Shown here: positions 12,873-50,240 of the stretch, in pieces
Position numbering within the stretch: position 1 is the first letter of the stretch
Layout: each line of letters starts with the position of its first letter
From: Alphaproteobacteria bacterium
GTDB lineage: Bacteria > Pseudomonadota > Alphaproteobacteria > UBA6615
NCBI GenBank assembly: GCA_965261975.1
Contig: CBDHEC010000034.1
Coordinates: 1 to 58,797, forward strand
DNA length: 58,797 nucleotides
Reading direction: 5' to 3'
Notes under the pieces: model-generated
The model's database searches: none
Told to the model about the DNA's origin: nothing
The model's input: only the letters and a program-made list of their open reading frames with translations
Position numbers and translations under genes: made by a program

Positions 12873-13045
12873 GTCCAAACACCGCGTGTGACCATCTCAG
12901 TGGTCCGAAATGACGACAAAATAGCGTCCTGATGCTGCTTGCCCTGCGTGCTGCAGCGCGGCATATTCCCCCCGCACTGTCAGGTGCACGGTGCAGGTGC
13001 CGACCGGCCCCGCACATGTTGGTTCGAACCGAGGTTCTTCACATC

Positions 13046-14278
13046 ATGAAGATCGCGATTGCAAAGGAACGCCGCCCGCACGAACGCCGCGTGGCCGCGA
13101 CCCCAGATACGATCAAACGCTACCTCCAGTGGGGCTTCGACGTGAGCGTCGAGAGCGGCGCCGGCGAGGGAGCATCAATTTCAGACGCGCAGTACAGCGA
13201 TGCCGGGGCGACCGTTGCGGCGTCACGTGCCGATGCGCTGGCGGGTGCCGATATCGTGCTCAAGGTCCAGCGTCCGCTGACCGCGGCGGACGGCGACGAC
13301 GGGATGGGCGACATTCCCGACGGGGCAATGCTGATCGCGTTGCAGAACCCGTATGGCGATCCGGCCGGCGTGGAGGCCTATGCAAAGGGCAACGTCACCG
13401 CTTTCGCCATGGAGATGCTGCCGCGTATCAGCCGCGCCCAGTCGATGGACGTGCTGAGCTCCCAGTCGAACCTGACCGGCTACAAGGCGGTGATCGACGG
13501 TGCTGCGAATTACGGCCGCGGCATGCCGATGCTGATGACCGCCGCCGGACGGATTAACCCGGCGAAAGTGTTCGTGATGGGTGCGGGTGTTGCGGGCCTC
13601 CAGGCCATCGCTACCGCGCGCCGCATGGGGGCCATCGTGTCGGCCACCGACGTACGCATGGCGGCCAAGGAAGAAGTGGCGAGCCTCGGCGCATCCTTCA
13701 TCATGGTCGAGCCCGATGAGGGCGATACCGGACAGACCGCCGGCGGTTACGCCAAGGAAATGTCCGACGATTACAAGCGCCGCCAGGCCGAGCTGATCGC
13801 GGATCACATCAAGGATCAGGATATCGTCATCACGACGGCGCTGATCCCGGGACGTCCGGCACCGGTGCTGGTCAATGATGACATGGTCGCCTCGATGAAG
13901 CCGGGTTCGGTGATCGTCGATATCGCGGCCGAGCAGGGTGGCAACTGCACCCAGACCAAGCCGGGCGAGAAGCATGTCACCGACAATGGCGTGATCATCC
14001 TGGCCGAACTCAATCTGCCCTCGCAGCTCGCCGCGGACACCTCGGCGCTGTATGCGCGGAACCTGCAGAACTTCATCGAATTGCTGGTCGACAAGGACGA
14101 AAAGAAAATCGCCATCGACTGGGAAGACGAAATTATCGTCGGCACCTGCCTGACGCGCGACGGCAAGATCGTGCATCCGGCCCTGCTGCCGAAAGACGAG
14201 ACACCGCCTGCCCCGGAACCTGCTGCCGAAGCAGATGATGAGGCGGACGACGAAACTTCATCCGAGCCGGGAGCCTGA
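13046..14278 (+). CDS. pntAa: NAD(P) transhydrogenase subunit alpha part 1
   Basis: [47 protein letters not shown]. Confidence 0.95.
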
Positions 14279-14280
14279 CC

Positions 14281-14688
14281 ATGGATCCTTCGACCCTAGC
14301 TGAAAGCGCCGCCCAGCTTGCCAATGACGCGCAGGGCATTGCCGAGCGCGCCGGTGCGCTGGCCCAGGACGCGACACAAATCGCCCTGACGCAAACCGCG
14401 GCCGGCGGCGACCCCTTCGTGTTCCTGTTCACCGTGTTCGTGCTGGCTTGTTTCGTCGGTTACTACGTGGTCTGGAGCGTCACCCCGGCGCTGCATTCGC
14501 CGCTGATGGCCGTCACCAACGCGATTTCGTCGGTGATCATCGTCGGCGCGCTGATCGCGGCCGGACCGGGTGAGTGGAACATTTCCAAGACTTTCGGGTT
14601 CATCGCCGTGATTCTCGCATCGGTGAACATATTCGGCGGATTTATCGTGACGCAGCGTATGCTCTCGATGTTCCGCGCGAAGAAGTAG
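14281..14688 (+). CDS. pntAb: NAD(P) transhydrogenase subunit alpha part 2
   Basis: [31 protein letters not shown]. Confidence 0.95.
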
Positions 14689-14701
14689 CAGAGCGCCGCA
14701 C

Positions 14702-16105
14702 ATGTCCGCTTCACTGACTGCATTTGCATATCTGATCGCCAGCGTCTGTTTCATCATGGCGCTGCGCGGCTTGAGCTCGCCGAAGACGGCCCGCATGGGC
14801 AATGTCTACGGCATCACGGGTATGGTCATCGCCATCCTCACCACCCTGACGCTACCAAGCGTGTCCTCTTTCGGCACGATCGCCCTCGGCATCGCGATCG
14901 GCGGTGCGCTGGGTGCGATCATCGCGCTCAAGATCGCCATGACCGCGCTGCCGCAGCTGGTTGCCGCCTTCCATTCCCTGGTCGGCCTCGCCGCGGTGTT
15001 CGTCGCGGGTGCGGCCTTCTTCTCGCCCGAGGCCTATGGCATCGGCACGGTCGGCGATATCAAGGTCGCCAGCCTGGTCGAGATGTCGATTGGTACGGCC
15101 ATCGGCGCGATCACCTTCACCGGTTCGATCATCGCCTTCGGCAAGCTGCAGGGCATCCTGCCGGGCAAGCCGCTGGTCTTCCCGGGCCAGCACATGGTCA
15201 ATCTCGGCCTCGGCATCGCACTGGTCGCCTGTGTGATCTGGCTGACCATCGCCCAGTCCGACACGGCCTTCTGGACGATCGTTGCGATCTCGCTGGTGGT
15301 CGGTGTGCTGATCATCGTGCCGATCGGCGGGGCGGACATGCCCGTCGTCGTGTCCATGCTGAACTCCTATTCCGGCTGGGCGGCCGCGGGTATCGGCTTC
15401 ACCCTGGCCAACCCCGCGCTGATTATCGTCGGCGCCCTGGTCGGCTCGTCGGGTGCGATCCTGAGTTACGTCATGTGCAAGGGCATGAACCGGTCCTTCT
15501 TCAACGTGATCCTGGGCGGCTTCGGTGGCGAGGCTGCCGCACCGGGCATGGAAGACCTGGGTGACCGGACGGTGCGCCAGGGGGCGGCGGACGACGCGGC
15601 CTTCATCATGGAGCAGGCGACCAAGGTCATCATCGTGCCGGGTTACGGCATGGCCGTGGCCCAGGCGCAGCACGCCCTGGCCGAGATGGCGCAGGTCCTG
15701 GAAGAGAAGGGCGTGGAAGTGCGCTACGCGATCCATCCCGTGGCCGGTCGCATGCCGGGTCATATGAACGTGCTGCTCGCCGAGGCGAGCGTGCCCTATG
15801 ACGTGGTGTTCGAGCTGGATGAGATTAATTCCGATTTCTCATCCACCGACGTGACCTTCGTCATCGGCGCCAACGACATCACCAACCCCGCGGCCAAGAC
15901 CGACAAGTCGAGCCCGATCTACGGGATGCCGGTCCTTAACGTCGAGGAATCGGGCACGGTGCTGTTTATCAAGCGCTCGCTCGCATCGGGTTATGCCGGT
16001 GTCGACAACCCGCTCTTCTATGAAGACAACACGATGATGCTGTTCGCCGATGCCAAGAAGATGTGCGAGGACATCGTCAAGGCGCTGAAGGGCGGCGGCC
16101 ACTAG
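14702..16105 (+). CDS. pntB: NAD(P) transhydrogenase subunit beta
   Basis: IGGADMPVVVSMLNSYSG, PGYGMAVAQAQH, HPVAGRMPGHMNVLLAEA. Confidence 0.96.
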   Translation: MSASLTAFAYLIASVCFIMALRGLSSPKTARMGNVYGITGMVIAILTTLTLPSVSSFGTIALGIAIGGALGAIIALKIAMTALPQLVAAFHSLVGLAAVFVAGAAFFSPEAYGIGTVGDIKVASLVEMSIGTAIGAITFTGSIIAFGKLQGILPGKPLVFPGQHMVNLGLGIALVACVIWLTIAQSDTAFWTIVAISLVVGVLIIVPIGGADMPVVVSMLNSYSGWAAAGIGFTLANPALIIVGALVGSSGAILSYVMCKGMNRSFFNVILGGFGGEAAAPGMEDLGDRTVRQGAADDAAFIMEQATKVIIVPGYGMAVAQAQHALAEMAQVLEEKGVEVRYAIHPVAGRMPGHMNVLLAEASVPYDVVFELDEINSDFSSTDVTFVIGANDITNPAAKTDKSSPIYGMPVLNVEESGTVLFIKRSLASGYAGVDNPLFYEDNTMMLFADAKKMCEDIVKALKGGGH

Positions 16106-16146
16106 GCCAAAGATTTTCCGGGTGCCTTGACGCACCCCTGAAACGC

Positions 16147-16183
16147 AAAACGCACGACCCAAAGGGTCGTGCGTTTTCTTTTT
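16147..16183. terminator. Bidirectional intrinsic terminator between pntB and rpsU
   Basis: AAAACGCACGACCC-AAA-GGGTCGTGCGTTTT hairpin followed by CTTTTT, between convergent genes. Confidence 0.85.
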
Positions 16184-16211
16184 CCTGAAAACAGGAGGTG
16201 TTGTCGCGGGG

Positions 16212-16427
16212 CTAGAAGCCTTCGCGTTCCTTGCGTTTGCGCGCGAGCTTCCGAGCCCGGCGAACCGCTTCCGCCTTTTCACGAGCGCGCTTTTCCGACG
16301 GCTTCTCATAGGAGCGACGGAGCTTCATCTCGCGAAATACGCCTTCGCGCTGCATTTTCTTCTTCAGCGCTTTCAGCGCCTGGTCGACATTATTGTCTCT
16401 AACTACGACCTGGACGATAGGAATCAC
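16212..16427 (-). CDS. rpsU: 30S ribosomal protein S21
   Basis: [31 protein letters not shown]...[15 protein letters not shown]. Start uncertain (GTG 16427 or non-canonical near 16415-16418). Confidence 0.95.
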
Positions 16428-16670
16428 CCCCTTCCGCACATTTCGGCCCGCAACCCGCATAAATTCACGGTTTTCGGTGCCGTCCCCAACGGGGAGGCGC
16501 CTTCTAGCACGGGTTTGCGCGAAAAGCCAAGGATTGGCGGCAACAGATTGGGCGTGCGTGCCGGAAAATCGCCTTAATTCGACGTTTCCATGGTATCCGG
16601 CGCTCATGTTGGGCATGCCGGCGCGATGGCGGTAACATCGCGGGACGCGTATCTGGATGGGAGTATCGGC

Positions 16671-17453
16671 ATGACGAACCGGCCGAATTTTGCAACGCCG
16701 ACAACAGCGGTAGCGTTTGCCTGCCTGCTGACGCTGGCGGCAGGCCCGGCCTGGGCGCAATCGACCCCGTCTTCGAACGCATCTGCCAGCCGCGATGCCG
16801 GCACGCTGTCCCACGACTGCACCGAGGTGACCGTCGACTACACCGACGATGCCAACCTGACCCGCGAGGAACGGATTGCCCGGATGGACCGCGCCTTCCA
16901 GCGCTCGTTGAGCCGGTTTGAGGAATGCCAGAGTGAACGCGCCGGCGCCGGCGGTGGAGCCAGTGGCGGCGGCACGGGTTCCGGCGCAGCGGGCGGCGGC
17001 GTTTCCGGGTCCGGGACCGCGGGATCTGAGCCGGACGGCAGCGAAACCTCGACGGCGGCGAGCGATATCTCCGGGCCGGACGCGCCGCTCGACGCGCCGG
17101 CACCCTCGGGCACCTCGACCGCGGCCAGCGATGTGACCGGCGATGAGCCGACCGTGACCGCCGCCACCACGCCCGACACGAATGCTTCGAGCTCAGGCGG
17201 CAAATGGACGCCGCCCGAGGATGCGGAAAACGGCCCATTGCCCGCAGACAGCGCGGCCGACGAAGAACCGGTGCGCGAGGCGGCGCGTACACAGAATAAC
17301 GGGAAGGTGCCGGAAGATATCCCGCCGGCGGACAACGACAGCGCGCTGGAGGCCCAAATACGCCAGGCGGCGATCGAGGAAACCGACCCGGAGCTGAAAA
17401 AACGGCTCTGGGACGAGTATCGCAGGTATAAGGGCCTGCCCGTGACGAACTAG
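16671..17453 (+). CDS. Secreted low-complexity protein (Gly/Ser/Pro/acidic) with helical C-terminal domain
   Basis: GGGAG RBS, signal peptide (AWA|Q), Cys pair, GS-rich linker, C-terminus [40 protein letters not shown]. Confidence 0.8.
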
Positions 17454-17473
17454 GCGGGCGGACGGAGACAGAC

Positions 17474-18739
17474 ATGCAAAAGTTTTTCCGCAATATGGGT
17501 GTCTACGCCCTGTGTGCGTGCTTCATTCTCACCGGCTGCGTGACCAACGGGAACGTCGGCTCGGGCGGCGGCGCGTCGGGTGCGAGCGGTCCCAATGTGG
17601 GCCCGCAGCTGTCGTCGCTGTTCGACCCCAAGGGGCCGGCCGTGGTCGACCCGGCCAAGCCGCGCCTTGATGTGATCGTGCCGGTGTTCGACCCGGGCCT
17701 TTCGGATGCTGGGCGCAACTACCAGGAAGAGGGTGTCTGGCCCGAGCTGCGGCGGGCCGAGGCAAACCGGTTTGCGGTGAAGCTGAAGGAGGCGCTCGAG
17801 AAAACGGGCGCGTTCGGCGCCGTGCGCGTGACCCCGGACCGCAACGCCACCGGCGATCTGTATGTCCTGGGGACCATCGTCGAATCCAACGGCGAGGACG
17901 TGGAGATCCAGGTCGAGGTGGTCGATGTGTCGGGCCGGTCCTGGTTCGTTCGCTCTTTCGACCATGAGGTATCCCCGGGATTTCACAAGAACACCCGCAA
18001 TGAGGGGCTGGATCCCTATGACCCGGTGTTCGATGAAGCGGCCAACCGGGTTGCCCTTGAGCTGGACGATTACTCGGTTGCGGAGCTGGACAATCTGGGC
18101 CGGCTAACCGAGCTGCGCTTCGGTTCGAACTTCGCCGAGGAGGCCTTCGCCGATCATCTCGAGGTCAAACGGAACAGTGTTTCGTTGCGCAGTTTTCCGA
18201 GCGATGCGGACCCGATGCTGGAGCGGACCCGCGCGGTACGGGTGCGGGACCAGTTGTTCGTGGACGGCTTGCAGGATCACTACCGCGCCTTCAGCGCCGA
18301 GATGCAGGAAAGCTACCTGATCTGGCAGGAGCAGAGCCTGTTCGAGATCGAGGCCCGGCGCGAAGCCAATGAGAAGGCGGCCGGTGAGGCCGCGCTCGGC
18401 GTGCTGGCCATCGGCCTGGGCGTGCTGGCCGTCATCGCCGGGGCGAACTCGGATTCCGCTGCCGGCCAGACAGCTGGTGTGACCGGCGGTATGGTGGCGG
18501 GAACGCTGGGGGCAACCCTGCTGTCGAGCAGCTTCCAGACCAGCAAGGAAGCCAAGGTGCACCGTGAAGCACTCGCCGAGCTGGGCGAATCCATCGATAT
18601 CGACCTCGCCCCGCGGGTGGTGGCGTTCAACGAGAAGACTGTCGAGTTGACGGGTACCGCCAAGGAACAATTCGCCCAGTGGCGGGCCTTCCTGCAAAAG
18701 GTTTTCGAGGAAGAGCGAACCCCGAACGTCCAGCTCTAG
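17474..18739 (+). CDS. Hypothetical lipoprotein
   Basis: GGAG RBS, lipobox ILTG|C, Gly-rich tether, Gly/Ala-rich hydrophobic hairpin (ALGVLAIGLGVLAVIAG...GGMVAGTLGA) near C-terminus. Confidence 0.85.
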   Translation: MQKFFRNMGVYALCACFILTGCVTNGNVGSGGGASGASGPNVGPQLSSLFDPKGPAVVDPAKPRLDVIVPVFDPGLSDAGRNYQEEGVWPELRRAEANRFAVKLKEALEKTGAFGAVRVTPDRNATGDLYVLGTIVESNGEDVEIQVEVVDVSGRSWFVRSFDHEVSPGFHKNTRNEGLDPYDPVFDEAANRVALELDDYSVAELDNLGRLTELRFGSNFAEEAFADHLEVKRNSVSLRSFPSDADPMLERTRAVRVRDQLFVDGLQDHYRAFSAEMQESYLIWQEQSLFEIEARREANEKAAGEAALGVLAIGLGVLAVIAGANSDSAAGQTAGVTGGMVAGTLGATLLSSSFQTSKEAKVHREALAELGESIDIDLAPRVVAFNEKTVELTGTAKEQFAQWRAFLQKVFEEERTPNVQL

Positions 18740-18754
18740 GTTACACTGGCGCCC

Positions 18755-20224
18755 ATGCTCCAGGAGAAACTCGAACAGGAAAGTCGGGCTGCCCAGCGTC
18801 GTCGGATGCAGATCGTGGTTGCCGTCGCGCTGAGTGTTGCGGTTGTCGGCCTCGCCTATGGCGGGCTGGTGCTGCTGCGCCCTTCCGGAGACGCGCCGGA
18901 CGTGACGAATGTGTCGCGCTCGACTCCCGCCGAGACGGTCACGAATGCGCCGGAAACCGTGGCGCTGGAAATTGCTGTCGACGATGCGGCGAACGAGGCC
19001 GCGCGCGCGCAGTTCAAGACCGACCTTGCGGCCTTCCAGGCCGACCTGGAGCCGGCGGTGGTGCATGCTGATTTCGCCCGCTGGGATGCCGCTGCCCAGC
19101 GCCGCGTTCTGGACGGCAAGGCAACCGCGATCGCGCTGTTTTCCGAGGCGGCCTATATGGCGGCCGTGGATGAACTGGCGGCGGCCCGCACGGTGGCCGA
19201 GGCGGCCCTGGCGGCCCGGGAGAAGGCATTCGATGATGCGTTCGCCGCGGCGGAAGCCGGCCATGGCGCGGACAATTACGACGTTGCGGCGCTGGCGATC
19301 GACCGGGCCCTGACCATCCGGCCGGCCTCTGCGCCGGCGTTGGCCCTGAAGCAGCGCATCGATGCGTTGCCCGCGCTGCTGGCGAAGATCGAGGACGCGG
19401 CCGTGGCCCGGGTCGAGAATAATCTGGACGCCGAGCGGCAGCATCTGGAGGCGGCCCTGGCGATCGATCCCGGCCGCACCGCTCTTGCGACGCGTCTGGA
19501 CGAGGTGCGCCGCCTGCAGCGCGACGCGCGCTTTGCCGGCCATATCGTCGCCGGCCTGACCGATGTGGAGGCCCGCAGACTGGCCTCGGCACAACGCAAC
19601 CTGGACGATGCCCGCGCGATCTATCCCGACCGCGCGGAGGTGGATGTTCTGGACGAGAAGATCGCCGGGCTGGAACTCGAACTCCTGATCGAGCGGCTGA
19701 CCCGGACGGCCCGGGGTGCGGCACAGGCCGACGACTGGGCGACGGCCGAACAATCCTATGTCCAGGTGCGCCGGCTGGCCCCGGCCAACCGCGACATCAC
19801 CGACGGGCTGGCGCTGGCCCAGACGATCAACGGGCTGCATGCGCGTGCCGCCCGGCACCTGGGCGCGCCCGACCGGCTCGCCTCCGAAGGGGTGGCCGCC
19901 GATGCCAGCGCGGTCGTCGCGGCGATCGCACCGCTGCGCGAGCACAGCCCGCGGCTCGCCGCCCAGGCCGATGCGCTCGCCGGGCTGGTGGCGGCCTATG
20001 GGGTGAAGGTGCCGGTGCGGATCGTCTCCGACGGGAAGACCGACATCACCGTGCGCGGGGTCGGGATCGTGGGGAAGGTGACCGAGCGGACCATCGAGCT
20101 GCGGCCGGGGCGTTATACCTTCGAGGGAATCCGCGAGGGTTTCCAGGCCGTTCTCGTGCGCGTCGACATCCCGCCGGGACAGGCCGACCTGGTCCTGGAG
20201 ATCGTGCCCGATGAACGAATCTGA
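18755..20224 (+). CDS. Membrane-anchored Ala-rich helical (TPR/coiled-coil-like) protein with C-terminal PEGA-like beta domain
   Basis: RRR + TM (IVVAVALSVAVVGLAYGGLVLL), helical repeats ending ALTIRP/ALAIDP/ARAIYP/RRLAP, C-terminal VRIVSDGKTDITV...LRPGRYTFEGIREGF. Confidence 0.8.
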   Translation: MLQEKLEQESRAAQRRRMQIVVAVALSVAVVGLAYGGLVLLRPSGDAPDVTNVSRSTPAETVTNAPETVALEIAVDDAANEAARAQFKTDLAAFQADLEPAVVHADFARWDAAAQRRVLDGKATAIALFSEAAYMAAVDELAAARTVAEAALAAREKAFDDAFAAAEAGHGADNYDVAALAIDRALTIRPASAPALALKQRIDALPALLAKIEDAAVARVENNLDAERQHLEAALAIDPGRTALATRLDEVRRLQRDARFAGHIVAGLTDVEARRLASAQRNLDDARAIYPDRAEVDVLDEKIAGLELELLIERLTRTARGAAQADDWATAEQSYVQVRRLAPANRDITDGLALAQTINGLHARAARHLGAPDRLASEGVAADASAVVAAIAPLREHSPRLAAQADALAGLVAAYGVKVPVRIVSDGKTDITVRGVGIVGKVTERTIELRPGRYTFEGIREGFQAVLVRVDIPPGQADLVLEIVPDERI

Positions 20225-22250
20225 ACCGCGTAAAGAACACGGGTTTGAACAGGGTCTGCGCGCGGCACGCGCGCGCCAGGCCCGGCTGTACCTGTTCGGG
20301 CTGGCAGCACTGGTGCTGGTGGTCGTGGCGGTCGCGGGGGTCCTGGTTTCTACCAATGCTACCCGGGTGACGATCCTGCGCGCCGAGGCGGAGCTGGCGG
20401 GCTCCATCGAGCTTGCCGAGGGCTTCGGGCTGGCGGTGGGAGACGCGGTCTACACGGTCTCGGCGCGGCCGGTGCTGCAGATACAATCGCCGGGGTTCCG
20501 CACGGCCAGGCGGGTGATCCAGCCCGGAGAGAAGGGTCGCCGGATCGCGGTGACCCTGGTGCCGCTGCCCGGCCGGGTGGTTGCCACTACGGCCCCGGCG
20601 CTGGACGACGCCCGCTGGTCGTTTGACGGGCGGCTGTTAACGGTGGGAGCAGTGCTCGATACCGAGGGTGAAGACGGTCCTCACGAGGTGGTGGTCGACC
20701 ATCCGTTCTTTTCTCCCGAGACACGCGCGGTGGATCTGCGGCGCGGCGAGGTGACGGAAATCGAGATTGCGCTCACGCCGGTCGCGGGTCGCGTGGCGAT
20801 ACTGTCAGATCCGACCGGTGCGACGGTCGCGATCGACGGCGCGGATGCCGGTGCGACGCCGCTGGATCGTTCGCTGGAGGGCGGGGAATACAATATCACT
20901 GTGACGGCGCCGGACAGGCAACCCCTGGAAGATATCATCCGGATCACCAACGCCAGGCCCGAGGTCGCGCGGAACTACAAGCTGCTGCGCTACGCCGCGA
21001 CACTGAACTTTGAGGTGACGCCAGCCGGGGGTGAACTGCTGGTCGACGGTCGCCGGGTCAACCCGGACGACCCGCTCGAAATCACCGCGGCGGCGGACCA
21101 CACGGTGGTGTATCTGCGCGACGGCTATCAGGGGGAGACCCGGACGGTACGGCTCGGCGCAAACGAGAACCGGACGATCGAGCTCGCGCTCAAGCCCGAG
21201 CTGGGACTGGTGGAGATCGAGGCCGCCCCGGCGGCGGAGATATATGTCGACGGCAAGTTGCGGGGTGAGGGCAGCGCTGCGCTGCGCCTGCTCGCGGTGC
21301 CGACGAGAATCGAACTGCGCAAGCCGGGCTATCGCAGTATTGCGCGCACGGTCGTACCGTCGGCGGGAAGCCCGCTGGTGATCCGCGAGACGCTGATCCC
21401 CGAGGCGGTGGCCCGGCTGGCCGAGGCGCCGCGGGCCTATACCAACAGCGCGGGTATCGAGCTTTTGCTGTTCGAGCCGAATGATGAATTCAAAATGGGG
21501 GCGCCGCGCCACGAGATTGGTCAGCGGGCCAACGAGTTTGAGCGACGCGTGCGCCTGACCCGGCCCTTCTATGCGGCGAAACACGAAACGACCAACGGCC
21601 AGATGGCGATGTTTCGCGGCAGCCGGGGCCTGGCCCCGAACGAGCCCGTGAGCGATGTGCGCTGGCAAGAGGCGGCCGCCTTCGCCAACTGGCTGAGCGT
21701 CAAGGAGGGATTGACGCCCTTCTATCGGATGACCGGTGACCGGGTACGTGGGTCCGATCCGGCAGCCGACGGTTACCGGCTGCTGAGCGAGGCGGAGTGG
21801 GAATGGCTTGCACGCAAGGCCGGACGGCCCGCGCGCACGATCTTCCCCTGGGGTGACGGGGCCACGGTGCCGCGCGGAGCAGGCAATATCGCGGATGAAT
21901 CGGCCAATGGTGTGGCTCGGAATTTCGTTCCCAACTACAATGACGGACATGCGCGGATCGCGCCCGTGGGCAGCTTCGCGGCTGAGGAATCCGGGCTGTT
22001 CGACCTGACGGGGAATGTCAGCGAATGGGTCCATGACGGATATTCGCTCGAGCCGCCCGCGAAGGGGTCTGTCGCGACCGACCCGCTGGGGCCGTCGTTC
22101 GGCGATGCCCATGTGGTCAAGGGATCGAGCTGGCGCTCGGGCACGCGCACGACGTTGCGTGCGGCCTATCGCGACGGCCTGTCCACCGGGCGCGACGATG
22201 TCGGATTCAGAATAGGGAGATATCTCCATGGCGAAGCCACAGCGCAATAG
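20211..22250 (+). CDS. PEGA-repeat protein with C-terminal FGE-sulfatase (SUMF1) domain
   Basis: N-terminal TM; PEGA-like units (SDPTGATVAIDG..G.TP, TPAGGELLVDG, AAEIYVDG...KPGY); FKMGAP, ETTNGQ, YRLLSEAEWEW, GLFDLTGNVSEWVHD, VGFRI. Confidence 0.88.
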   Translation: MNESEPRKEHGFEQGLRAARARQARLYLFGLAALVLVVVAVAGVLVSTNATRVTILRAEAELAGSIELAEGFGLAVGDAVYTVSARPVLQIQSPGFRTARRVIQPGEKGRRIAVTLVPLPGRVVATTAPALDDARWSFDGRLLTVGAVLDTEGEDGPHEVVVDHPFFSPETRAVDLRRGEVTEIEIALTPVAGRVAILSDPTGATVAIDGADAGATPLDRSLEGGEYNITVTAPDRQPLEDIIRITNARPEVARNYKLLRYAATLNFEVTPAGGELLVDGRRVNPDDPLEITAAADHTVVYLRDGYQGETRTVRLGANENRTIELALKPELGLVEIEAAPAAEIYVDGKLRGEGSAALRLLAVPTRIELRKPGYRSIARTVVPSAGSPLVIRETLIPEAVARLAEAPRAYTNSAGIELLLFEPNDEFKMGAPRHEIGQRANEFERRVRLTRPFYAAKHETTNGQMAMFRGSRGLAPNEPVSDVRWQEAAAFANWLSVKEGLTPFYRMTGDRVRGSDPAADGYRLLSEAEWEWLARKAGRPARTIFPWGDGATVPRGAGNIADESANGVARNFVPNYNDGHARIAPVGSFAAEESGLFDLTGNVSEWVHDGYSLEPPAKGSVATDPLGPSFGDAHVVKGSSWRSGTRTTLRAAYRDGLSTGRDDVGFRIGRYLHGEATAQ

Positions 22251-22395
22251 AACAAGAATGGGCCTTGTCCGGCGCCGGGCGACGCTGGCGCTGGTCGCCC
22301 TCGCCGCGGGAGTCGGGCTGCTCGGTTTTGCCTACGCCCAGTCTTCATCATCCATCAGCCTGAACTCGCCGGTTTCGTTTCCGGTCGATATCTAG
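22228..22395 (+). CDS. Small secreted peptide (55 aa) ending SFPVDI
   Basis: Not in ORF track. GGGAGA RBS 7 nt before ATG 22228; MAKPQRNRTRMGLVRRRATLALVALAAGVGLLGFAYA|QSSSSISLNSPVSFPVDI*; fills the gap between two cluster genes. Confidence 0.75.
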   Translation: MAKPQRNRTRMGLVRRRATLALVALAAGVGLLGFAYAQSSSSISLNSPVSFPVDI

Positions 22396-22417
22396 CTGCA
22401 GCTACAGGGACGAACGC

Positions 22418-23215
22418 ATGCCCGAAGTCGCCAAGAATATCCTCGCGCTGGTCGTCTCGATCATCGTCGTCCACCTGTTCTACGTGAGCTATGTCTGGCC
22501 GGAATCGACCCAGCTGATCGAGGCGGCACGCGCCGCGGGCCAGAGTGCGCCGCGCAATATCGTGGTGATCCTCAAGGACTGGGAACAGGAGATCGCCATC
22601 ATCCTGATGTTCTGGGGTTTGTATCTGATCTTCGAGAAATCCATCGCGATCATGCGCGAGCGCTACTTGTTCAATGTGGACCTCCTCGACGGCAACGGAG
22701 ACGGCGGCGGTGATATGGCCGCGACCCTCCGGACCCTTGAAGCCCTGCCGGAGAAGATCCGTACTGCACCCCTGGTCCGCACGCTTATGGCGAGCCTGCG
22801 CCGGTTCCTGATCACCGGCGACGTGCACAACACGTCCGAGACCATCGAGGCGAGCGTCGACGCGATGGCGCAAAAGCAGGAGGCCGAGAACTCCCTGATC
22901 CGCTACCTGATCTGGGCCATTCCGGCGATCGGCTTCATCGGCACGGTGCGCGGCATCGGCGAGGCGCTTTCCCAGGCCGACCAGGCGCTGGCGGGCGACA
23001 TCGCCGGCATGACCGAGAGCCTCGGCGTGGCCTTCAACTCCACCTTCGTGGCGCTGCTGATCTCGATCGTCCTGATGTTCCTGCTGCACCAGTTGCAGCG
23101 GCTGCAGGACGGGATGCTGGTGGACACCCAGGAATATTGCGAATCCTTCCTGTTGAACCGGATCAGCGCGGCGGGCCTGAGCCAGGCTGATTCCAACCTG
23201 GGCGGCGAAAGCTGA
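22418..23215 (+). CDS. MotA/TolQ/ExbB proton channel family protein
   Basis: AIPAIGFIGTVRGI and MTESLGVAFNSTFVAL match the P.lGllGTV.G / gi..Al.tT channel motifs; 4 hydrophobic segments. Confidence 0.9.
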   Translation: MPEVAKNILALVVSIIVVHLFYVSYVWPESTQLIEAARAAGQSAPRNIVVILKDWEQEIAIILMFWGLYLIFEKSIAIMRERYLFNVDLLDGNGDGGGDMAATLRTLEALPEKIRTAPLVRTLMASLRRFLITGDVHNTSETIEASVDAMAQKQEAENSLIRYLIWAIPAIGFIGTVRGIGEALSQADQALAGDIAGMTESLGVAFNSTFVALLISIVLMFLLHQLQRLQDGMLVDTQEYCESFLLNRISAAGLSQADSNLGGES

Positions 23216-24267
23216 GACGGCGCCGCTCACCCCCGGGGTTCAACCTCGCCTTCCTGGACATCATGTCCTGCGGGCTGGGGGCCATCATTCTCGTCCTGAT
23301 GCTGGTGAAGCTCGACACCGACAACGTGTCGGCCGAGAGCGACCGGTTGCGCGAGGATCTGGCACGCCTGGAAGCGACGGAGACCGATCTGGCCGTGCGG
23401 ATCACGGCCCTGCTGCGCGCCAAGGCGGTGAGTGCGGAGGAGGTCGCGGCCCGCGCGGCGGAACTGGCCCGGTTGCAGGCGGAGCTGGCACGCGAACGAG
23501 ACCGGATTGCCGCGAGCCAGACGGCGGCGCGTGCGCTCGAGGAAACCATCACCTCGATCGAGGTGCCCGAGAAACCTGATGTGATCGAGACCCGGCCGAC
23601 CGGCAGCGAAAATTATATCGTCGGGCTGCGGGTCGAGGGTGCGCGGATCGGGGTGCTGGTGGATTCCAGCGCGTCGATGACCGACGCGGTGCTGATCGAC
23701 ATCATCCGGCGCAAGAACATGAATGCGGCCGCCAAGCAGGCCGGGCCGAAATGGCAACGCACCAAACGCGTGGTGAACTGGTTCCTAGCCCGGATACCGC
23801 AACGCTCCGACGTGCGCGTCGTTGCCTTCAACGATCAGGCGCGGCCGCTCGGCGATGTGGTCGGCGGCACGGATGCTGCCGGGCTGGGCCGGGTGCTGGG
23901 CGACCTCGATGACGTGGTGCCGGCGGGGCCGACCAATTTGGCGGCGGGACTGGCGTCACTGGCCGCATTCCGGCCGACGGATGTTTATGTCATCACCGAT
24001 GGCCTGCCCACGGCGGGCACGGGCGGTTACCGGAGCCTCAACCCGTTCTCGGACTGCAGCGCGCTGTGGGGCGGTGCCACCTCGATTTCCGGCGCCTGCC
24101 GGGTTCGCCTGCTGCGGCACACGATCGACAATGCGGGGATCGGCAACGCGAAGGTCAATGTCGTGCTGTTGCCGATCGAGGGCGATCCGCAGGCGTCGCA
24201 CGAGTTCTGGAAATGGACATCGGCGACGGACGGTACCCTGATCAGCCCGGCATCGAGCTGGCCATGA
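23212..24267 (+). CDS. ExbD-like TM + coiled coil + vWA domain protein 1
   Basis: (CTG)RRRRSPPGFNLAFLDIMSCGLGAIILVLML TM with Asp; heptad-like segment; MIDAS DSSAS, GPTNL, ITDGLP. Probable CTG start overlapping upstream TGA. Confidence 0.85.
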   Translation: MRRRRSPPGFNLAFLDIMSCGLGAIILVLMLVKLDTDNVSAESDRLREDLARLEATETDLAVRITALLRAKAVSAEEVAARAAELARLQAELARERDRIAASQTAARALEETITSIEVPEKPDVIETRPTGSENYIVGLRVEGARIGVLVDSSASMTDAVLIDIIRRKNMNAAAKQAGPKWQRTKRVVNWFLARIPQRSDVRVVAFNDQARPLGDVVGGTDAAGLGRVLGDLDDVVPAGPTNLAAGLASLAAFRPTDVYVITDGLPTAGTGGYRSLNPFSDCSALWGGATSISGACRVRLLRHTIDNAGIGNAKVNVVLLPIEGDPQASHEFWKWTSATDGTLISPASSWP

Positions 24268-24277
24268 GGATGAGGCC

Positions 24278-25231
24278 ATGAGGCGAAAACGCGCCGAGTT
24301 CGAAATCTTCAACCTGTCGTTTCTCGACGTGATCTCCTGCGGCTTCGGCGCGGTGGTGTTGCTGGTGCTGATTTCGCCCTTCGGTGTGTCGGACGAGGCG
24401 GGCGGAAAGGACGAGACAAGCACGCTGTTGCAGCGGCTGATCAGTACGGAGGCGCGGATCGAGCAGCTGGAGACCGCGTTGGGGCGCGAGAGCGAGACTC
24501 TGGCCGAGACCAGAGCGCGGCTCGAATCCGAAGGCGCGGCCGTCGGTACCACAGAGGAGGAATTGCGCCGCGCCAACGCGGCGGCGGCCCAAGCGGCGCG
24601 CAACGTGGAAGGGCTCAAGACCGTCGAGAGCGCGCTGCGCAACCAGGCCCGGGCCGGGGTTTCGGCCCCCGAAGCGGCCCCGCGCGATGCCGAGGTTGGC
24701 GGCATTCCGGTGGATAGTGAATTCGTCGTCTTCGTCGTCGACACCTCGGGTAGCATGCAGTCGATCTGGGAGCGGGTGACCCGCGAGGTCGAGAACATCA
24801 TTCGCGTCCACCCGCAGATCAAGGGCTTCCAGGTGCTGAACGACAATGGCACCCACCTGATCGGCGGCTATAGCGGGCGCTGGATTCCCGATACCAAGGG
24901 TGCGCGGGACCGGGCAATAAGCCTGTTTCGCAGCTGGAAGAGCGCGTCGAACTCGAGCCCGGTCGAGGGGTTGGAGGTGGCGCTGAAACGCTATGTGAAG
25001 GCCAACGAGAAGACCTCGATCTACATCTTCGGTGACGACTACACCGGGTCGTCCTACGACCCCGTGATCGCCACCCTGTCGCGGCTCAACCGGAACCGCA
25101 TCACCGGTGACCCCAAGGCGCGGGTGCATGCCATCGGGTTCATCTCCCAGCAAACCCAGGGCCGCTTCGAGACCCTGATGCGCGAGGTCACGCGGCAGAA
25201 CAACGGCACGTTCGTGGCGCTGCCGCGTTAG
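24278..25231 (+). CDS. ExbD-like TM + coiled coil + vWA domain protein 2
   Basis: MRRKRAEFEIFNLSFLDVISCGFGAVVLLVLI; coiled coil; MIDAS DTSGS, IFGDD, RVHAIGF; GAGG RBS. Confidence 0.88.
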   Translation: MRRKRAEFEIFNLSFLDVISCGFGAVVLLVLISPFGVSDEAGGKDETSTLLQRLISTEARIEQLETALGRESETLAETRARLESEGAAVGTTEEELRRANAAAAQAARNVEGLKTVESALRNQARAGVSAPEAAPRDAEVGGIPVDSEFVVFVVDTSGSMQSIWERVTREVENIIRVHPQIKGFQVLNDNGTHLIGGYSGRWIPDTKGARDRAISLFRSWKSASNSSPVEGLEVALKRYVKANEKTSIYIFGDDYTGSSYDPVIATLSRLNRNRITGDPKARVHAIGFISQQTQGRFETLMREVTRQNNGTFVALPR

Positions 25232-26148
25232 CGCCGTACCGCGCGCGGGTCGAGGGCGTCCTGGAGGCCGTCGCCGAGGAAGTTGAAGGCCATCACCGTG
25301 ACGAAGATGACCGCGCCCGGCCAGATCGCCAGTGCCGGCGCGCGGGTGGCCAGCTCCTGGGCGTTGGTCAGCATGTTGCCCCAGCTCGGGATGGGCGGCT
25401 GGATGCCGAGGCCCAGGAAGCTCAGCACCGATTCCAGCAGGATCACCGTGCCGATCGACAGTGTCGTGGCGACGATGATCGGCGAGACGATATTCGGCAG
25501 GATGTGGCGCAGCATGATCACGCCGGGCCTGGCGCCCATGGCCTCGGCGGCGCGCACGAATTCGCGGGTTCGCACCGACAGGGTGCCGGCGCGGACCAAT
25601 CTTGCGACCGTGGTCCAGCCGACGACCGCGATGATGAAGACGATCCGGTAGAGGCTCGCCATTTCCGAGTTGGCGATGTCGGCGGGCACGCCCACCTTGC
25701 CCAGATCGACCGCCGCCAGGATGATCAGCAACGGCAGGAGCGGCAGCGCGATGACCCCGTCGGTGCTGCGCATCAACAGCGTGTCCAGCCGGCCGCCATA
25801 GTAGCCGGCCAGCAGGCCGATGGTCGTGCCGATGGTCGCCGCACCCAGCGCGGCCACGAGCCCGACCAGCAGGGAGATGCGCCCGCCATACAGCAGCCGC
25901 ACCAGCACGTCGCGCCCCGCCTCGTCGGTGCCGAGCCAGTGGGTGGCATCGGGCGGCGCATACTGGTTGAACAGATCGACCCGCGTGGCATCGACCCCGA
26001 GCATGGCCTCGAAGGCGGGCGCGAGGAGCGCGGCCAGCGCGATCAGGGCCAGCAGCATGGCGCTCGCCATGGCCGGGCGGTTGCGCCGGAACCGCTGCCA
26101 GAAACGCGAGGACTCCGACTGGCCGATTGTATCTGCGGCGATACTCAC
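25228..26148 (-). CDS. Peptide/nickel ABC transporter permease (OppC/DppC-like)
   Basis: HWLGTDEAGRD, EFVRAAEAMGA EAA loop, RHILPN, LSFLGLG, PSWG. Confidence 0.92.
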   Translation of the reverse strand: MSIAADTIGQSESSRFWQRFRRNRPAMASAMLLALIALAALLAPAFEAMLGVDATRVDLFNQYAPPDATHWLGTDEAGRDVLVRLLYGGRISLLVGLVAALGAATIGTTIGLLAGYYGGRLDTLLMRSTDGVIALPLLPLLIILAAVDLGKVGVPADIANSEMASLYRIVFIIAVVGWTTVARLVRAGTLSVRTREFVRAAEAMGARPGVIMLRHILPNIVSPIIVATTLSIGTVILLESVLSFLGLGIQPPIPSWGNMLTNAQELATRAPALAIWPGAVIFVTVMAFNFLGDGLQDALDPRAVRR

Positions 26149-27141: not shown

Positions 27142-28813
27142 TCACTCGGCCTTCCAGTTCTCGATCCAGAGCGTGCTCGGATACTGGTGGCCGGTGGGCG
27201 TAACGCCGGAGAGCCATGTGGGCATGACGAAGGCGTTGGCCCGGAAGTAGAGCGGCAACACCGGGAGCTGTTCGGCATAGGTCTGCTGGATCATGTTCCA
27301 GTGCCGGGTCTGGGCCTCGGGCCCACATTCCACCTCGACCCGGTCGATGGCCTCGTCCATCACCGGGTTGGCGAAGCCGGTGTAGTTCTGGCCCGACCAG
27401 CCGTTGTCGGCGGTCGGGATCATCGAGGAATGCATGGTCGTGCGCGGGATGTTCTCCGGGGTCGAGAACCAGGCGAACATGGCCATGCCCGGAAACTCGC
27501 GCTGGCGGATGGTCTGCCCGAACAGCACCCGGGCGGGCTGGTTGCGGATGCGCAGATCGACCCCGACCTCGCGCAGGTTCGACTGGATCACCTGCTCGAC
27601 CAGTTCGCGGACCCGGTTGCCCGCCGTGGTCATGATCTCGAGGCGCAGCGGCTCGCCCCCCGCGTTGTGGCGAATGCCCTTGCGAATGTCGGTCCAGCCC
27701 GCCGCGTCGAGCAGCGCGCGGGCCGTCTCCGGGTCGAAGGGATATTTGCGCACGTCATCGGTGTGCACGGCATCCAGCGGGTGGGACGAAGGTGTCGGCG
27801 ACGGGCTGCTTGCCCTCGAACAGACGCTCGCTGATCGCGTTGCGGTCGATCGCATGAAGCAGTGCGCGCCGGACATCCAGATCCGCGAGGATCGGGTTGT
27901 CGAGCCGCAGATCCACATGCTCGTAAAACAGCCCCGGCTTGAAGACCACGTTGAAGCGGTCGCCATGGCGTTTGTCGAAGGCGAGCGCCTGGTCCAGCGA
28001 GATGCCGTCCTCGCCGGCGATGTAGTCGATCTCCCCCGACAGCAGGTTTGCCTCCAGTGCCGCCGTGTTTTCGATGGTGCGCACGGTGATCCGTTTGAAG
28101 GCCGGTTTCTTGCCCCACCATGTGGGGTTGGGCTCCAGGGTGATGCTGGCCCCGGGTTCGACGTTGGAGATACGATACGGCCCGAAATACAGCCCGGCGC
28201 GGGTCGGGTCGGTGTCGTAGGCGTTGCGGGTGCGATAGGTCGCCGGGTCGCGTGCCGCCTCGGCCTCGAGATGGGCCGGGACGAGTTCGAAATCGTTGAT
28301 CGCCTCGGCGTTACATGTGCGCTTGTTCCAGAAAATGGTGAAGTTCTTCGCATCATGGGCGACGATCTTCTCCATCCGCCGATAGAGTTCCTGGTTGTTG
28401 ATACCCGCACTCTCGTCGCGCCCGATCGCCCAGGTAAATTTCACGTCCTCGGTGGTGACCGGCACGCCGTCGCCCCAGGTCGCGCCAGGCCGGATCGTGT
28501 AATCGACCTCCAGGCCGTCTTCGCCGGCCGCTGTCGTCCAGTCGCGGATGGTGCCTGCCGCGCGTGACGGCAGCGTCTCGCACAGCATGCAGATGAGCTT
28601 CCAGTCCGCGTCGTAGACGGTGAAGGGCCGCCGGGTCATGCCGTTGATCAGCGACAGGACCACATGGCTGGCGAGGTTGGGGTGGAAGCCCTGGGGAAAC
28701 TGGCCGACGCCGATGACCAGCTCGTCGCGTGCCTTGTCCTGGGCCGGCGCCGGGGCGGCGGCGAGTGTCGTGGCCAGCGCGGCGGCGGCGATCGCGATCT
28801 TGAGCTTCAACAT
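27142..28813 (-). pseudogene. Peptide ABC substrate-binding protein (family 5), split by one frameshift near 27784
   Basis: Signal peptide, WGDGVPVTTEDVKFTW, GPYRI, VRRALLHAIDR in one frame; HPLDAVHTDD..YPFDPETARALLDAAGW to NWKAE in another. One extra base at TTC GTC C CAC. May be a sequencing error. Confidence 0.85.
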
Positions 28814-47795: not shown

Positions 47796-49271
47796 TCAAT
47801 CCGAATCCGTACCGGTAAGCCCTCCTAGAGCTTCTAGGAACCTTTGGTGTCTTTTCCTGTATCCATCTGTTGCAATTTCTTCTTCCCCTTCTTCCTTACG
47901 ATCAATGACAACCTGCTTGGCTCCTGTGACCTGCTGGTAGGCACTCACCATGGTTTGTCGGAGTAGGTCTTCGTGCTGTCTGGCCACGATGTAGCTGTCA
48001 TGGATGGTCAAAACAGGAATATTCATTTGGGTGAACTGGTCGATGATGATGTCGGTGATACGTCCATCGGTGTTCATCAGCCGATTGCCAACCCCAGTAC
48101 CTAGCTGGTCACCGACGATGGGATGTCGTTGTGGTATGGCCTCAAGTAGACGGTCGAGTAGGTTGTCAGTCAGACGGATGTCCCCGGTTCGACCACCAAG
48201 CGACTTCCGGACCGCCTTGAAGCCGGATGCCCTGTCCTTGGCGTTCAACATGATCAGAAGAAAAACCTTGATGATGTCGGGGCCAATGAGTTCCCCGGTG
48301 TCACTATCGAAGACCTCGATGGTCTCGTAAGGCCTTCGATCGGAACCCGCCCAGTAATCGACACCCGCCTCGGCATAGAGAAGAACGGGATGAAGACCGG
48401 CATAGTCCAGCTCGACGGTTGGTTCATCGTTGATGTGTAGGCGTTGTCGTTCCTCCGACTTGAGGCTCATCCAGAAGCCGCGCCAGAAGCGGCCTCCCTG
48501 ATCCCAGTCGCTATTTGAGAAGATACGGGAGACACGCTTAGACGATTGAGAGACCGTGACCCTTCGATAGGTTTGCCGACCGCGCGGCCTGACCTTGTTG
48601 GGCGTCACGATCACTGCCGGGTGACCAAGCCCCGGTATATCGATGAAGGTGCGGTCCAGCAGCAGATTGTAGTCAATGAGCCGTTGGCGCATCACCCGGG
48701 TCTCATCGGTGTCGATGTAGTTGATGTCGTTCTTGTTGGCATCACGCAGGATGATGAACTCGGCATTCTGGTGCAGCGTGATCGACTGCCGTGCCGAGAG
48801 GGGCAGGGCTTCAAACATCGCCACCAGATCAAGGTCAGGTCTGATCCGCGTCAGGAGGAGTTCATGAGTATCGGGGTGGGGGCCGCCACGACGATCGTCG
48901 ATCAGCCCGGCGTCGGATAGTCCATTAATATAGGTGATAATCAGTCCGGTTATCTCTGCTGGATTGTACCGATTGGACCGACCGTCGATCTTGGCCCGAT
49001 AGGCCTTGGGCCGGTTCGACATCGGCAGAGCAACGAATGCCTCTGGGTCGTCCCACCAGCACCGGTAAAGGTTGGCAATCAGCAACGACAGTTGTCGTTT
49101 GCCCACACCACTTTTGCGACTGTCGAAATATTCCCCCCAGAGCTGATCGACCAATTCGATGAAAACCGGATCTTCGGCAACGACCTGCAAGTCCAGACGA
49201 CAAAACGGGGCGTCGTCAAAGGACTGGATCTCTTCGCCTCTATCAGCAAATCGTGGGCGGCGTGTTGGCAT
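47796..49271 (-). CDS. Divergent PolA / T7-RNAP superfamily polymerase-like protein
   Basis: DWDQGGRFW, VELDYAGLHP (motif A-like), IKVFLLIMLNA (motif B-like), NRLMNTDGRI...LTIHDSY (motif C-like); GAGAGG RBS. ORF is solid; function inferred. Confidence 0.65.
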   Translation of the reverse strand: MPTRRPRFADRGEEIQSFDDAPFCRLDLQVVAEDPVFIELVDQLWGEYFDSRKSGVGKRQLSLLIANLYRCWWDDPEAFVALPMSNRPKAYRAKIDGRSNRYNPAEITGLIITYINGLSDAGLIDDRRGGPHPDTHELLLTRIRPDLDLVAMFEALPLSARQSITLHQNAEFIILRDANKNDINYIDTDETRVMRQRLIDYNLLLDRTFIDIPGLGHPAVIVTPNKVRPRGRQTYRRVTVSQSSKRVSRIFSNSDWDQGGRFWRGFWMSLKSEERQRLHINDEPTVELDYAGLHPVLLYAEAGVDYWAGSDRRPYETIEVFDSDTGELIGPDIIKVFLLIMLNAKDRASGFKAVRKSLGGRTGDIRLTDNLLDRLLEAIPQRHPIVGDQLGTGVGNRLMNTDGRITDIIIDQFTQMNIPVLTIHDSYIVARQHEDLLRQTMVSAYQQVTGAKQVVIDRKEEGEEEIATDGYRKRHQRFLEALGGLTGTDSD

Positions 49272-49390
49272 TAGAACCTCTCGACGAAGATTCTAACGGA
49301 CACTCAGAGATTAAGACGCAATCAGGCTTGTGGGTAACCCGCATAGCTCTGAGTTCCTGCATCTATCAATTCCGTGCTGGTCACGGTCCG

Positions 49391-49816: not shown

Positions 49817-50240
49817 GCCGATACTCCTTCTGACCAATTTTACGATGAGGTCGGCATGTTCAGAAGGAGATCTAGGTACGTTATGATGGTCGCATTGCCA
49901 ACCATGCGGTCGGTGGGACGAAATCATACCTGCTGAGTGGCTGGAAGATGGCATGCCAGACGTTGACTAAATCCGGCAGCGGTTCATCTACTCTGTCTGC
50001 GGCAGGGTCGCCGAGAAGCAGGTGCGGGCACCAAAGTTGGGGATGTCCAACGAGAGTGGGTACCGGGGGACGTGACTTACAGCTTCACGACATGTCAAAG
50101 GATTGACGATAGAGGCTGAGTTGGATAGCCGGTCGGGTTATCGGGGGATTTGAACGTAGCGTACTATGTTTGTGCTGAAAGGGGTTGCGGTTCGTCTATT
50201 TAGGAGAATTTTTGTGCAAGGGTTTAAAATAAAAAAATTA

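Follow-up and report, generated by a model that had tools for sequence, protein, structure and literature searches.

Flagella, TonB uptake, the upkeep of the envelope by Tol-Pal, gliding, type 9 secretion and Zorya defence all run on ion-driven 5:2 motors. A further family was recently predicted in silico (PMC12204202, Mol Biol Evol 2025). As the main text of that paper describes it, genes for von Willebrand factor A (vWA) proteins tethered by a transmembrane (TM) helix, mostly found as heterologous pairs, are tightly linked to tolQ homologues without tolR or exbD. The "transpore" helix of these vWA proteins bears a conserved Asp, models made with AlphaFold 3 (AF3) put that helix inside the pentamer, and the function is stated there as unknown. 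The defining features of the family include a ring of Thr lining the pentamer lumen at the Asp pair. Here, a cluster of eight genes (g1 to g8) is analyzed that lies at positions 16671-25231 of a 58,797-nucleotide (nt) alphaproteobacterial contig (CBDHEC010000034.1, assembly GCA_965261975.1); "the window" below is this whole stretch. With moderate confidence, the locus is read as belonging to a predicted TolQ/MotA-like 5:2 ion-motor family with heterodimeric transpore-helix vWA proteins as B subunits, set in a self-contained eight-gene envelope cassette.

The genes of the cassette, with product lengths in amino acids (aa), are:

g1: 16671..17453, + strand, secreted protein, 260 aa counted from M28 of the open reading frame (ORF) at 16590
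g2: 17474..18739, + strand, lipoprotein, 421 aa, LTGC lipobox
g3: 18755..20224, + strand, single-pass membrane protein, 489 aa
g4: 20211..22250, + strand, single-pass membrane protein, 679 aa, PEGA and formylglycine-generating enzyme (FGE)-sulfatase domains
g5: 22228..22395, + strand, micro-protein, 55 aa (45 aa if the ATG at 22258 is used)
g6: 22418..23215, + strand, MotA/TolQ/ExbB-family channel subunit, 265 aa
g7: 23212..24267, + strand, transpore-helix vWA protein 1, 351 aa from the CTG at 23212
g8: 24278..25231, + strand, transpore-helix vWA protein 2, 317 aa

All eight envelope ORFs that an initial annotation had listed as tightly packed, overlapping and co-directional are present on the + strand, and their spacing could be measured. 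Gaps separate g1 from g2 (20 nt), g2 from g3 (15 nt), g5 from g6 (22 nt) and g7 from g8 (10 nt); overlaps join g3 to g4 (14 nt), g4 to g5 (23 nt) and, if g7 starts at CTG 23212, g6 to g7 (4 nt).

The cassette shares with the family of PMC12204202, as its main text presents it, a MotA_ExbB-family gene (g6) that directly adjoins genes for TM-anchored vWA proteins (g7, g8), the absence from the window's cassette of a syntenic tolR, exbD or motB gene, a heterologous vWA pair with a TolR/ExbD-like helix and its conserved Asp, and a distribution mainly in Proteobacteria. In that main text the words "PEGA", "FGE", "formylglycine" and "sulfatase" occur 0 times each, and the five upstream partners go unmentioned, as do the micro-protein, the fixed stalk length and the TonB_C, kinase and FHA variants described below. 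No further paper on these genes turned up in full-text literature searches; the eight-gene cassette, its micro-protein and its sensor-like variants are not in print as far as such searches reach. Thus, where the initial annotation spoke of an undescribed motor, the motor part holds at the level of sequence, whereas the core had already been predicted, with AF3 models, in PMC12204202. It also knew of no characterized system of this composition; none matched in PADLOC, NCBIfam or Pfam, nor in the literature searches.

Conservation of the cassette

A search with a g8 alignment of contigs from one genome per species gave at least 553 confirmed stretches from 584 candidates, of which the best 80 were kept. 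Synteny was counted in 63 of these 80 loci, those with at least 7.8 kb upstream. Genes g1-g4 and g6-g8 are complete and colinear in 59 of the 63, which is far above chance, and the colinear loci span Alpha-, Gamma- and Zetaproteobacteria, Desulfobacterota and Binatota. Gene by gene, g1, g2, g4, g6, g7 and g8 are present in 63/63 loci and g3 in 62/63; three of the four exceptions to colinearity are two loci (L084, L090) whose best g1 match lies outside the cassette and one that lacks g3. An initial set, drawn from Rhodospirillaceae-like metagenome-assembled genomes (MAGs), Mariprofundaceae, Poriferihabitaceae, Pseudomonadales and Alteromonas, had the gene set in order in 9 of 10 loci. The initial annotation had thought similar gene sets probable in other proteobacteria; the synteny proves to be strongly conserved.

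The cassette is itself the conserved unit, and it is self-contained. No flanking gene recurs, the best flank cluster being found in 6/61 loci, and no defence genes recur there. A ninth conserved gene was sought and rejected, with nothing conserved upstream of g1 or in the flanks. The fourth exception to colinearity, a Rickettsiales MAG (L095), keeps g4-g8 together and has g1-g3 inverted just downstream; this split suggests two sub-modules.

The predicted motor core

The channel subunit g6 matches PF01618 (MotA_ExbB) with an E-value (E) of 7e-14. Three hydrophobic segments were scored (residues 8-26, 61-79 and 204-222) and a fourth was found by eye (~162-182), four being expected. At least 90% of 74 orthologues keep two motifs of the last two helices, IWAIPxxGFxGTVRGIG and AFNST, including their Thr. 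In TolQ, ExbB and MotA, the Thr of the lumen is found at these motif positions.

The start of g7 needed revision. The ATG chosen in the initial annotation (23263) falls inside the conserved helix, and an ORF beginning there would cut off the Asp. Upstream of 23263 the frame offers no ATG, GTG or TTG; it offers a CTG at 23212, inside a CTGA that overlaps the TGA stop of g6. The CTGA arrangement is common to the five closest relatives and one Mariprofundaceae locus, more distant orthologues have ATG at that place, and CTG is the sole start candidate in 11 of the 45 loci examined. Translation of g7 probably starts at this CTG, with translational coupling to g6.

Read from there, g7 has a basic cytoplasmic N-terminus, a helix (FNLAFLDIMSCGLG) carrying Asp16, a stalk and a vWA head (VWA_2, E 4e-6, 28 bits vs a cut-off of 27). 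In 62 sequences the DxSxS motif of the head (DSSAS here), a Thr, an Asp and two Cys are all invariant; the invariant Cys pair fits a periplasmic location of the head. A profile of the head gave weak matches only, the best at E 0.0044. The second vWA protein, g8, is built alike, with a basic N-terminus, a helix (FNLSFLDVISCGFG) carrying Asp17, a coiled-coil-like stalk, in whose region solved coiled coils are matched weakly, and a head that is vWA-like but divergent. Here, D-T-S-x-S (DTSGS in the window), SNSSP and GDD are invariant in 62 sequences.

Both proteins have F-L-D-[IV] in the TM helix. Their segments FNLAFLDIM and FNLSFLDVI align with INVAPFVDVM of the genome's own TolR, and the F and D are invariant in the 7 sequences aligned. 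The two are paralogous over the first 77 aa only (35% identity, E 1e-10), and their heads cannot be aligned by BLASTP. PF02472 (ExbD/TolR) and OmpA matches are absent from all eight cassette proteins, and for g7 and g8 PF02472 is absent even at E <= 10. The claim of a MotA/TolQ/ExbB channel accompanied by two vWA proteins with an Asp in the TM helix is borne out by PF01618 in g6 and by the alignment of the two helices with that of TolR.

The stalk length is nearly fixed. The distance from the helix Asp to the Asp of the metal-ion-dependent adhesion site (MIDAS), a motif that both heads keep intact and invariant, was measured in 63 of the 80 loci, the other 17 being truncated or missed by the pattern. 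For g7 the median is 135 residues (range 133-143, exactly 135 in 36 loci); for g8 it is 136 (range 131-169). Such near-equal, constant distances fit a matched heterodimeric g7/g8 stalk.

The genome holds four PF01618 genes and one PF02472 gene. The latter is tolR, in a ybgC-tolQ-tolR-tolA-tolB-pal locus on contig C30. MotA_ExbB-family genes on contigs C8 and C43 (open frames of 305 and 287 aa), beside which no ExbD-family neighbour was detected, are presumably flagellar stators.

The upstream partners and the micro-protein

Five genes lie upstream of the channel gene. The secreted protein g1 has a signal peptide (AWA|Q), read directly from the sequence like the lipobox of g2 and the TM segments, an N-terminal domain with two conserved Cys, and a low-complexity Gly/Ser/Thr/Asp linker. 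Its C-terminal block, conserved in 59 orthologues, reads DIP.ADNDS..aqir.aa..e.dp....LwneYrkykglp. No Pfam or NCBIfam entry matches it.

The lipoprotein g2 likewise has no match in Pfam or NCBIfam, and its profile matches no PDB sequence at E <= 1. It carries a Gly-rich hydrophobic hairpin at about residues 306-353. Its family is large, with 1020 representatives at E <= 1e-3, 652 at <= 1e-10 and 285 at <= 1e-30, and the members are named only "hypothetical" or "lipoprotein". No fused forms longer than 738 aa were found; the sole hit of that kind (P0061) resembles a read-through from g1 into g2.

The first of the two large single-pass proteins, g3, has an 18-aa cytoplasmic N-terminus and a TM helix at 20-38. 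Its periplasmic part appears helical and TPR-like, and its C-terminal domain beta-rich. Sub-threshold TPR matches occur in 3/5 orthologues and a sub-threshold PEGA/CarboxypepD_reg match in 1/5 (E 0.004-0.009). The initial annotation had made PEGA proteins of both g3 and g4. For g4 this is confirmed, together with its FGE domain; for the g3 of the window it is unsupported, with no Pfam match at E <= 1 and a BLASTP comparison with the g4 repeats at E 0.42. In one locus (L017:4773-6887) the open frame of the g3 orthologue runs ~230 residues upstream of the conserved part; either the N-terminus is extended there or the frame reads through a gene that was inserted.

In g4 the Pfam matches are strong (PEGA E 4e-24; FGE-sulfatase E 6e-31). 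About four to five PEGA/immunoglobulin (Ig)-like modules precede an FGE-fold domain at 426-668; PEGA matches were found in four of five sub-segments, one above the Pfam cut-off. A profile of the FGE domain finds FGEs of solved structure (E 3e-25) as well as PorK/GldK (E 4e-23), the latter match being the longer one, and the best NCBIfam match of g4 is GldK, at 60.3 bits vs a cut-off of 350. A catalytic formylglycine-generating enzyme needs two active-site Cys. The window's g4 has zero Cys, and thus no such pair; because it has no cysteine, it cannot be a catalytic FGE. The domain would have to act as a scaffold or binder.

Between g4 and g6 lies the micro-protein g5. Its ATG (22228) is preceded by GGGAG, with an alternative ATG at 22258. 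The product has a basic N-terminus, a hydrophobic segment of ~20 aa and an invariant tail, ...SLNSPxSFPVDI-stop. A g5-type ORF was seen by eye in all 9 initial loci, and the pattern ...[ILF]SL[NDH][STA]Px[STRAK][FL]P[VISA]DI-stop, applied to small ORFs between g4 and g6, matched in 56 of the 63 loci, so the micro-peptide first noted from one sequence proves to be a conserved component. In 62 sequences L35, P38, P42, D44 and I45 are invariant. The motif found no match in the divergent cassettes L102-L104 and L106.

An AxA stands within 12 residues before the motif in 44 of the 62 sequences, whereas 200 shuffles averaged 14.1 and reached 23 at most. This AxA is likely a cleavage site, and the product of cleavage would be a peptide of 15-20 residues in the periplasm. 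With a median of 19 uncharged residues, the hydrophobic segment is long enough that it may instead stay uncleaved as a membrane anchor. Because the invariant Asp of the tail adjoins the free C-terminus, the tail is a candidate ligand for a MIDAS or for the FGE groove.

Variants, distribution and spread

Some lineages carry the cassette with domains that the window's cassette lacks. Three metagenome contigs (L102-L104) have a complete cassette in which g2 bears a C-terminal TonB_C domain (PF03544, E 1e-14). In two further metagenome contigs, L105 and L106, which are 83% identical and represent one lineage, the g3 orthologue has an N-terminal Ser/Thr kinase domain (Pkinase, E 2e-29), and L106 has an additional gene between g6 and g7 whose 469-aa product carries an FHA domain. 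A search of genome contigs for the kinase variant found only generic kinases, and the periplasmic part of the kinase-bearing g3 had no match there; P0036, likewise sought for the variants, was not found in genome contigs. The variant genes are:

L102:1279-2925: g2 with TonB_C (PF03544)
L106:11222-13156 and L105:5836-7776: g3 with Pkinase
L106:16621-18030: FHA-domain gene between the channel gene and the first vWA gene

The cassette is sporadic. In 401 genomes sampled from the phylum, 20 have the g8 head and 21 have g2. Every one of the 20 with the head also has g2, and the extra genome with g2 only is 70% complete. Of the 212 genera sampled, 8 carry the cassette. Within the window's own genus, g7 was matched in 8 of 11 other genomes. 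Carriers are concentrated among marine bacteria, and those in culture include Magnetovibrio blakemorei, Sneathiella, Denitrobaculum, Aestuariispira, Agaribacter and Glaciecola. No match to g8 was found in 72,556 plasmid records.

A quick maximum-likelihood tree of the FGE domain and both heads, which is unrooted and in which MAG labels may be imprecise, mixes phyla. Binatota fall within an alphaproteobacterial clade (SH-like approximate likelihood ratio test, SH-aLRT, 99), a Desulfobacteraceae group joins Nitrosomonadaceae (100), and Amphritea adjoins Sneathiella (94). This mixing suggests that the cassette has spread horizontally.

Genomic setting

The features immediately upstream of the cassette are:

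12932-16105, + strand (pntB): pntAA/AB/B
16147-16177: strong hairpin terminator, a 14-bp stem then a T-run, between pntB (+) and rpsU (-)
16212-16424, - strand: rpsU, ribosomal protein S21 (PF01165 Ribosomal_S21, E 7e-21), divergent from g1

Thus, the stretch upstream of g1 that the initial annotation had taken as intergenic holds rpsU on the minus strand. Its start is probably the GTG located after GGAAGGGGG, and the adjacency of rpsU and cassette is kept in five aligned loci (L011, L013, L014, L022 and L024). A conserved non-coding leader upstream of g1 was considered and rejected, the conserved stretch being rpsU on the other strand. The hairpin could terminate pntB and rpsU alike.

Downstream, a peptide ATP-binding cassette (ABC) transporter operon converges on the cassette and overlaps g8 by 4 nt. 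With rpsU divergent on one side and this operon convergent on the other, the cassette is a separate transcription unit, with its promoter expected in the ~245 nt at 16425-16670; a promoter scan was at chance level (1 found vs 1.2 expected). No Rfam match was found over 15900-25600 at E <= 0.1, and the G+C of the cassette is the same as that of its surroundings.

Two further features of the window deserve mention. The SBP_bac_5 gene of the peptide ABC transporter (27142-28813, - strand) is split into two overlapping ORFs in different frames, 27755-28813 covering profile positions 14-249 and 27142-28410 covering 242-350; a frameshift, a pseudogene or an assembly error would each account for this. 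The region 48001-52000 has a G+C of 0.51-0.55 vs 0.62-0.69 elsewhere in the window and may be a foreign island.

A proposed mechanism and its rivals

How might such a cassette work? By analogy with MotAB, ExbBD and TolQR, and in keeping with the published AF3 models, five copies of g6 would form a channel around the Asp helices of g7 and g8. Ion flow by way of g7 Asp16 and g8 Asp17 would turn the pentamer relative to the dimer. The dimer would extend as a matched stalk and end, in the periplasm, in two different MIDAS heads. These heads would bind the cassette's periplasmic partners in a metal-dependent manner, the likeliest partner being the FGE domain of g4, held out on its row of four to five Ig-like modules; the g2 lipoprotein and the terminal -P-x-D-I of g5, which is invariant, are other candidates. 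The proton-motive force (PMF) would thereby be coupled to a complex near the outer membrane. The output would most likely be an energized tethering, remodelling or surveillance of the outer envelope, accessory to the canonical Tol-Pal system.

For a contact between an FGE domain and a vWA domain there is a modelled precedent. In passages of PMC13713981, TagR, a member of the FGE superfamily, is held by the lipoprotein TagQ and modelled binding the periplasmic domain of PpkA, which passages of PMC3224232 give as a vWA domain.

Several results weigh, of course, against the motor reading. Among solved chains, g6 is matched best by MotA 8gqy, and only weakly (E 0.08), and BLASTP finds no significant similarity between g6 and the genome's own TolQ (E 3.2). 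The g8 head falls below every Pfam vWA cut-off; the vWA matches around DxSxS stay sub-threshold (E 0.011-0.014). In neither g3 nor g5 does conservation within the TM helix point to a place where it could dock on the pentamer, and no outer-membrane barrel, peptidoglycan-binding domain or cytoplasmic effector was found in the cassette. The locus would be a new member of the family in PMC12204202 by the defining features given in its main text, not by sequence similarity to the Idiomarina seed.

The rival that survives best makes the cassette a sensor of envelope damage or state, not a generator of force. Here, g2 (as an outer-membrane lipoprotein), g4 and the g7/g8 heads would work like TagQ/TagR/PpkA, while g6 would be gated by, or report, the engagement of the heads; the signal put out would be a flux of ions or, in some lineages, phosphorylation on Ser/Thr. 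The domain set matches the TagQ/TagR/PpkA module, the L105/L106 lineage has a Ser/Thr kinase on g3 and L106 an FHA gene between g6 and g7, and the cassette is accessory and sporadic (8/212 genera). However, neither a kinase nor an FHA domain nor any other output domain for the cytoplasm is present in the window's cassette, and its g3 tail in the cytoplasm is 18 aa; the kinase variant, moreover, was seen in one lineage only and was not found in genome contigs. The strictly conserved proton-binding Asp and the GT motif also favour an active motor. A sensor pure and simple is for these reasons considered unlikely, while deserving the most serious hearing among the rivals.

A more speculative reading is offered as something of a long shot. 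In this reading, the cassette would be a PMF-powered machine for envelope surveillance and tethering, in which the processed g5 peptide (~15-20 residues, ending -P-x-D-I-COOH) would serve as the metal-coordinating ligand of the vWA heads or as a ligand in the groove of the pseudo-FGE domain, gating or clutching the motor. The logic of TagQ/TagR/PpkA would be placed on a 5:2 motor, with Ser/Thr-kinase and FHA signalling in some lineages. If this were true, it would be the first case of an ion motor clutched by a peptide that is encoded genetically.

A third possibility, judged improbable, is a rotary drive for surface movement or secretion in the manner of GldKLMN or Myxococcus Agl-Glt, in which rotation of the g7/g8 shaft against the FGE scaffold of g4 would shift an adhesin or drive the export of a cargo, for instance g1. 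The FGE domain of g4 does match PorK/GldK no less well than true FGEs, and the PorK/GldK match is longer; GldK is also its best NCBIfam match. The genes for the type 9 motor stand in the order gldK-L-M-N, which the order of FGE protein, channel and single-pass shaft proteins in the cassette mirrors. Further, vWA adhesins act in Myxococcus gliding (PMC9946355). Against this, the GldK score is 60 bits vs a cut-off of 350, and Pfam and NCBIfam searches showed no GldL, GldM, GldN, SprA, Glt or outer-membrane translocon. Likewise, g4 is no lipoprotein and has its anchor in the inner membrane, some of the carriers are planktonic marine lineages, and no cargo is evident.

An anti-phage or anti-competitor defence on a MotA-like motor, akin to Zorya, is very improbable indeed: its patchy distribution, the mixing of phyla in the quick gene tree (SH-aLRT 99-100) and the weak ZorA match of g6 (E 0.0017) can be put forward for it, but 7/8 proteins have no PADLOC match and the ZorA match is 15 bits, all products are envelope proteins with no nuclease, NTPase or other effector among them, the neighbours are housekeeping genes (pntAB, rpsU, the peptide ABC transporter) with no recurring defence genes in the flanks, the 72,556 plasmid records gave no match, and nothing in the data favours it.

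Thus, the 5:2 ion motor with a heterodimeric vWA shaft remains the preferred reading. The g7/g8 family would add a use of such motors in which heads for metal-dependent binding are borne across the periplasm by the inner subunits themselves. Its members are many, with at least 553 g8-head stretches (one genome per species) and 1020 representative clusters of the lipoprotein. The parts list, the micro-protein and the link to TagQ/TagR/PpkA make the system open to concrete, cheap experiments.

Comparison with known systems

With Zorya ZorAB and the flagellar stators MotAB/PomAB, the cassette shares a channel of the MotA-family pentamer type with an Asp-helix partner, and MotA is the best solved match of g6. 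The stators differ in that g7 and g8 end in vWA heads, not in an OmpA-like peptidoglycan-binding domain, and in that no flagellar genes lie in the cluster. Zorya differs by its long ZorA tail and, beside ZorB, its type-specific effectors (ZorC/D, ZorE or ZorF/G); no long tail and no ZorC/D-type effectors are found here; PADLOC returned only the 15-bit ZorA match on g6 and none on the other 7 proteins.

PorK/GldK is an FGE-fold partner of the GldLM motor. The type 9 secretion and gliding apparatus GldK(PorK)-GldL-GldM-GldN thus resembles the cassette in having the gene for an FGE-fold scaffold beside a 5:2 motor with single-pass subunits that cross the periplasm. It differs in its channel, g6 being of the MotA/ExbB family and not GldL, and in the charge of the shaft helix, which in the cassette is the TolR-type Asp. 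The GldK score of g4 is far below its cut-off, and no GldL/M/N or translocon match was found.

TolQR-TolA-TolB-Pal and ExbBD-TonB share with the cassette the PF01618 channel and an Asp partner helix, which aligns with that of TolR. The operon, too, is comparable, in that it also contains single-pass proteins spanning the periplasm, a lipoprotein and secreted proteins; the TonB_C domain on the g2 lipoprotein of L102-L104 is a further point in common with ExbBD-TonB. However, the cassette has no PF02472 periplasmic domain, TolB or OmpA-like Pal, the TM helices of g3 and g4 have no His, unlike TonB and TolA, and the genome has a separate, complete Tol-Pal locus.

The TagQ/TagR/PpkA module, a damage sensor of the Pseudomonas aeruginosa H1 type VI secretion system (T6SS) that signals by threonine phosphorylation through a Hanks-type kinase, differs from the cassette in its surroundings, there being no T6SS genes near the cassette, and in its signalling parts, no Pkinase or FHA domain being found among the eight window proteins. 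Only in variants are these parts shared, a Ser/Thr kinase in L105/L106 and an FHA protein, to be set beside Fha1, in L106; even there, the kinase and FHA domains sit on proteins other than the vWA ones. The module itself has no counterpart to the MotA/ExbB channel and Asp helices found in the cassette. The likeness is one of domain set: a putative outer-membrane lipoprotein, a protein of the FGE superfamily and a membrane-anchored periplasmic vWA domain are common to both.

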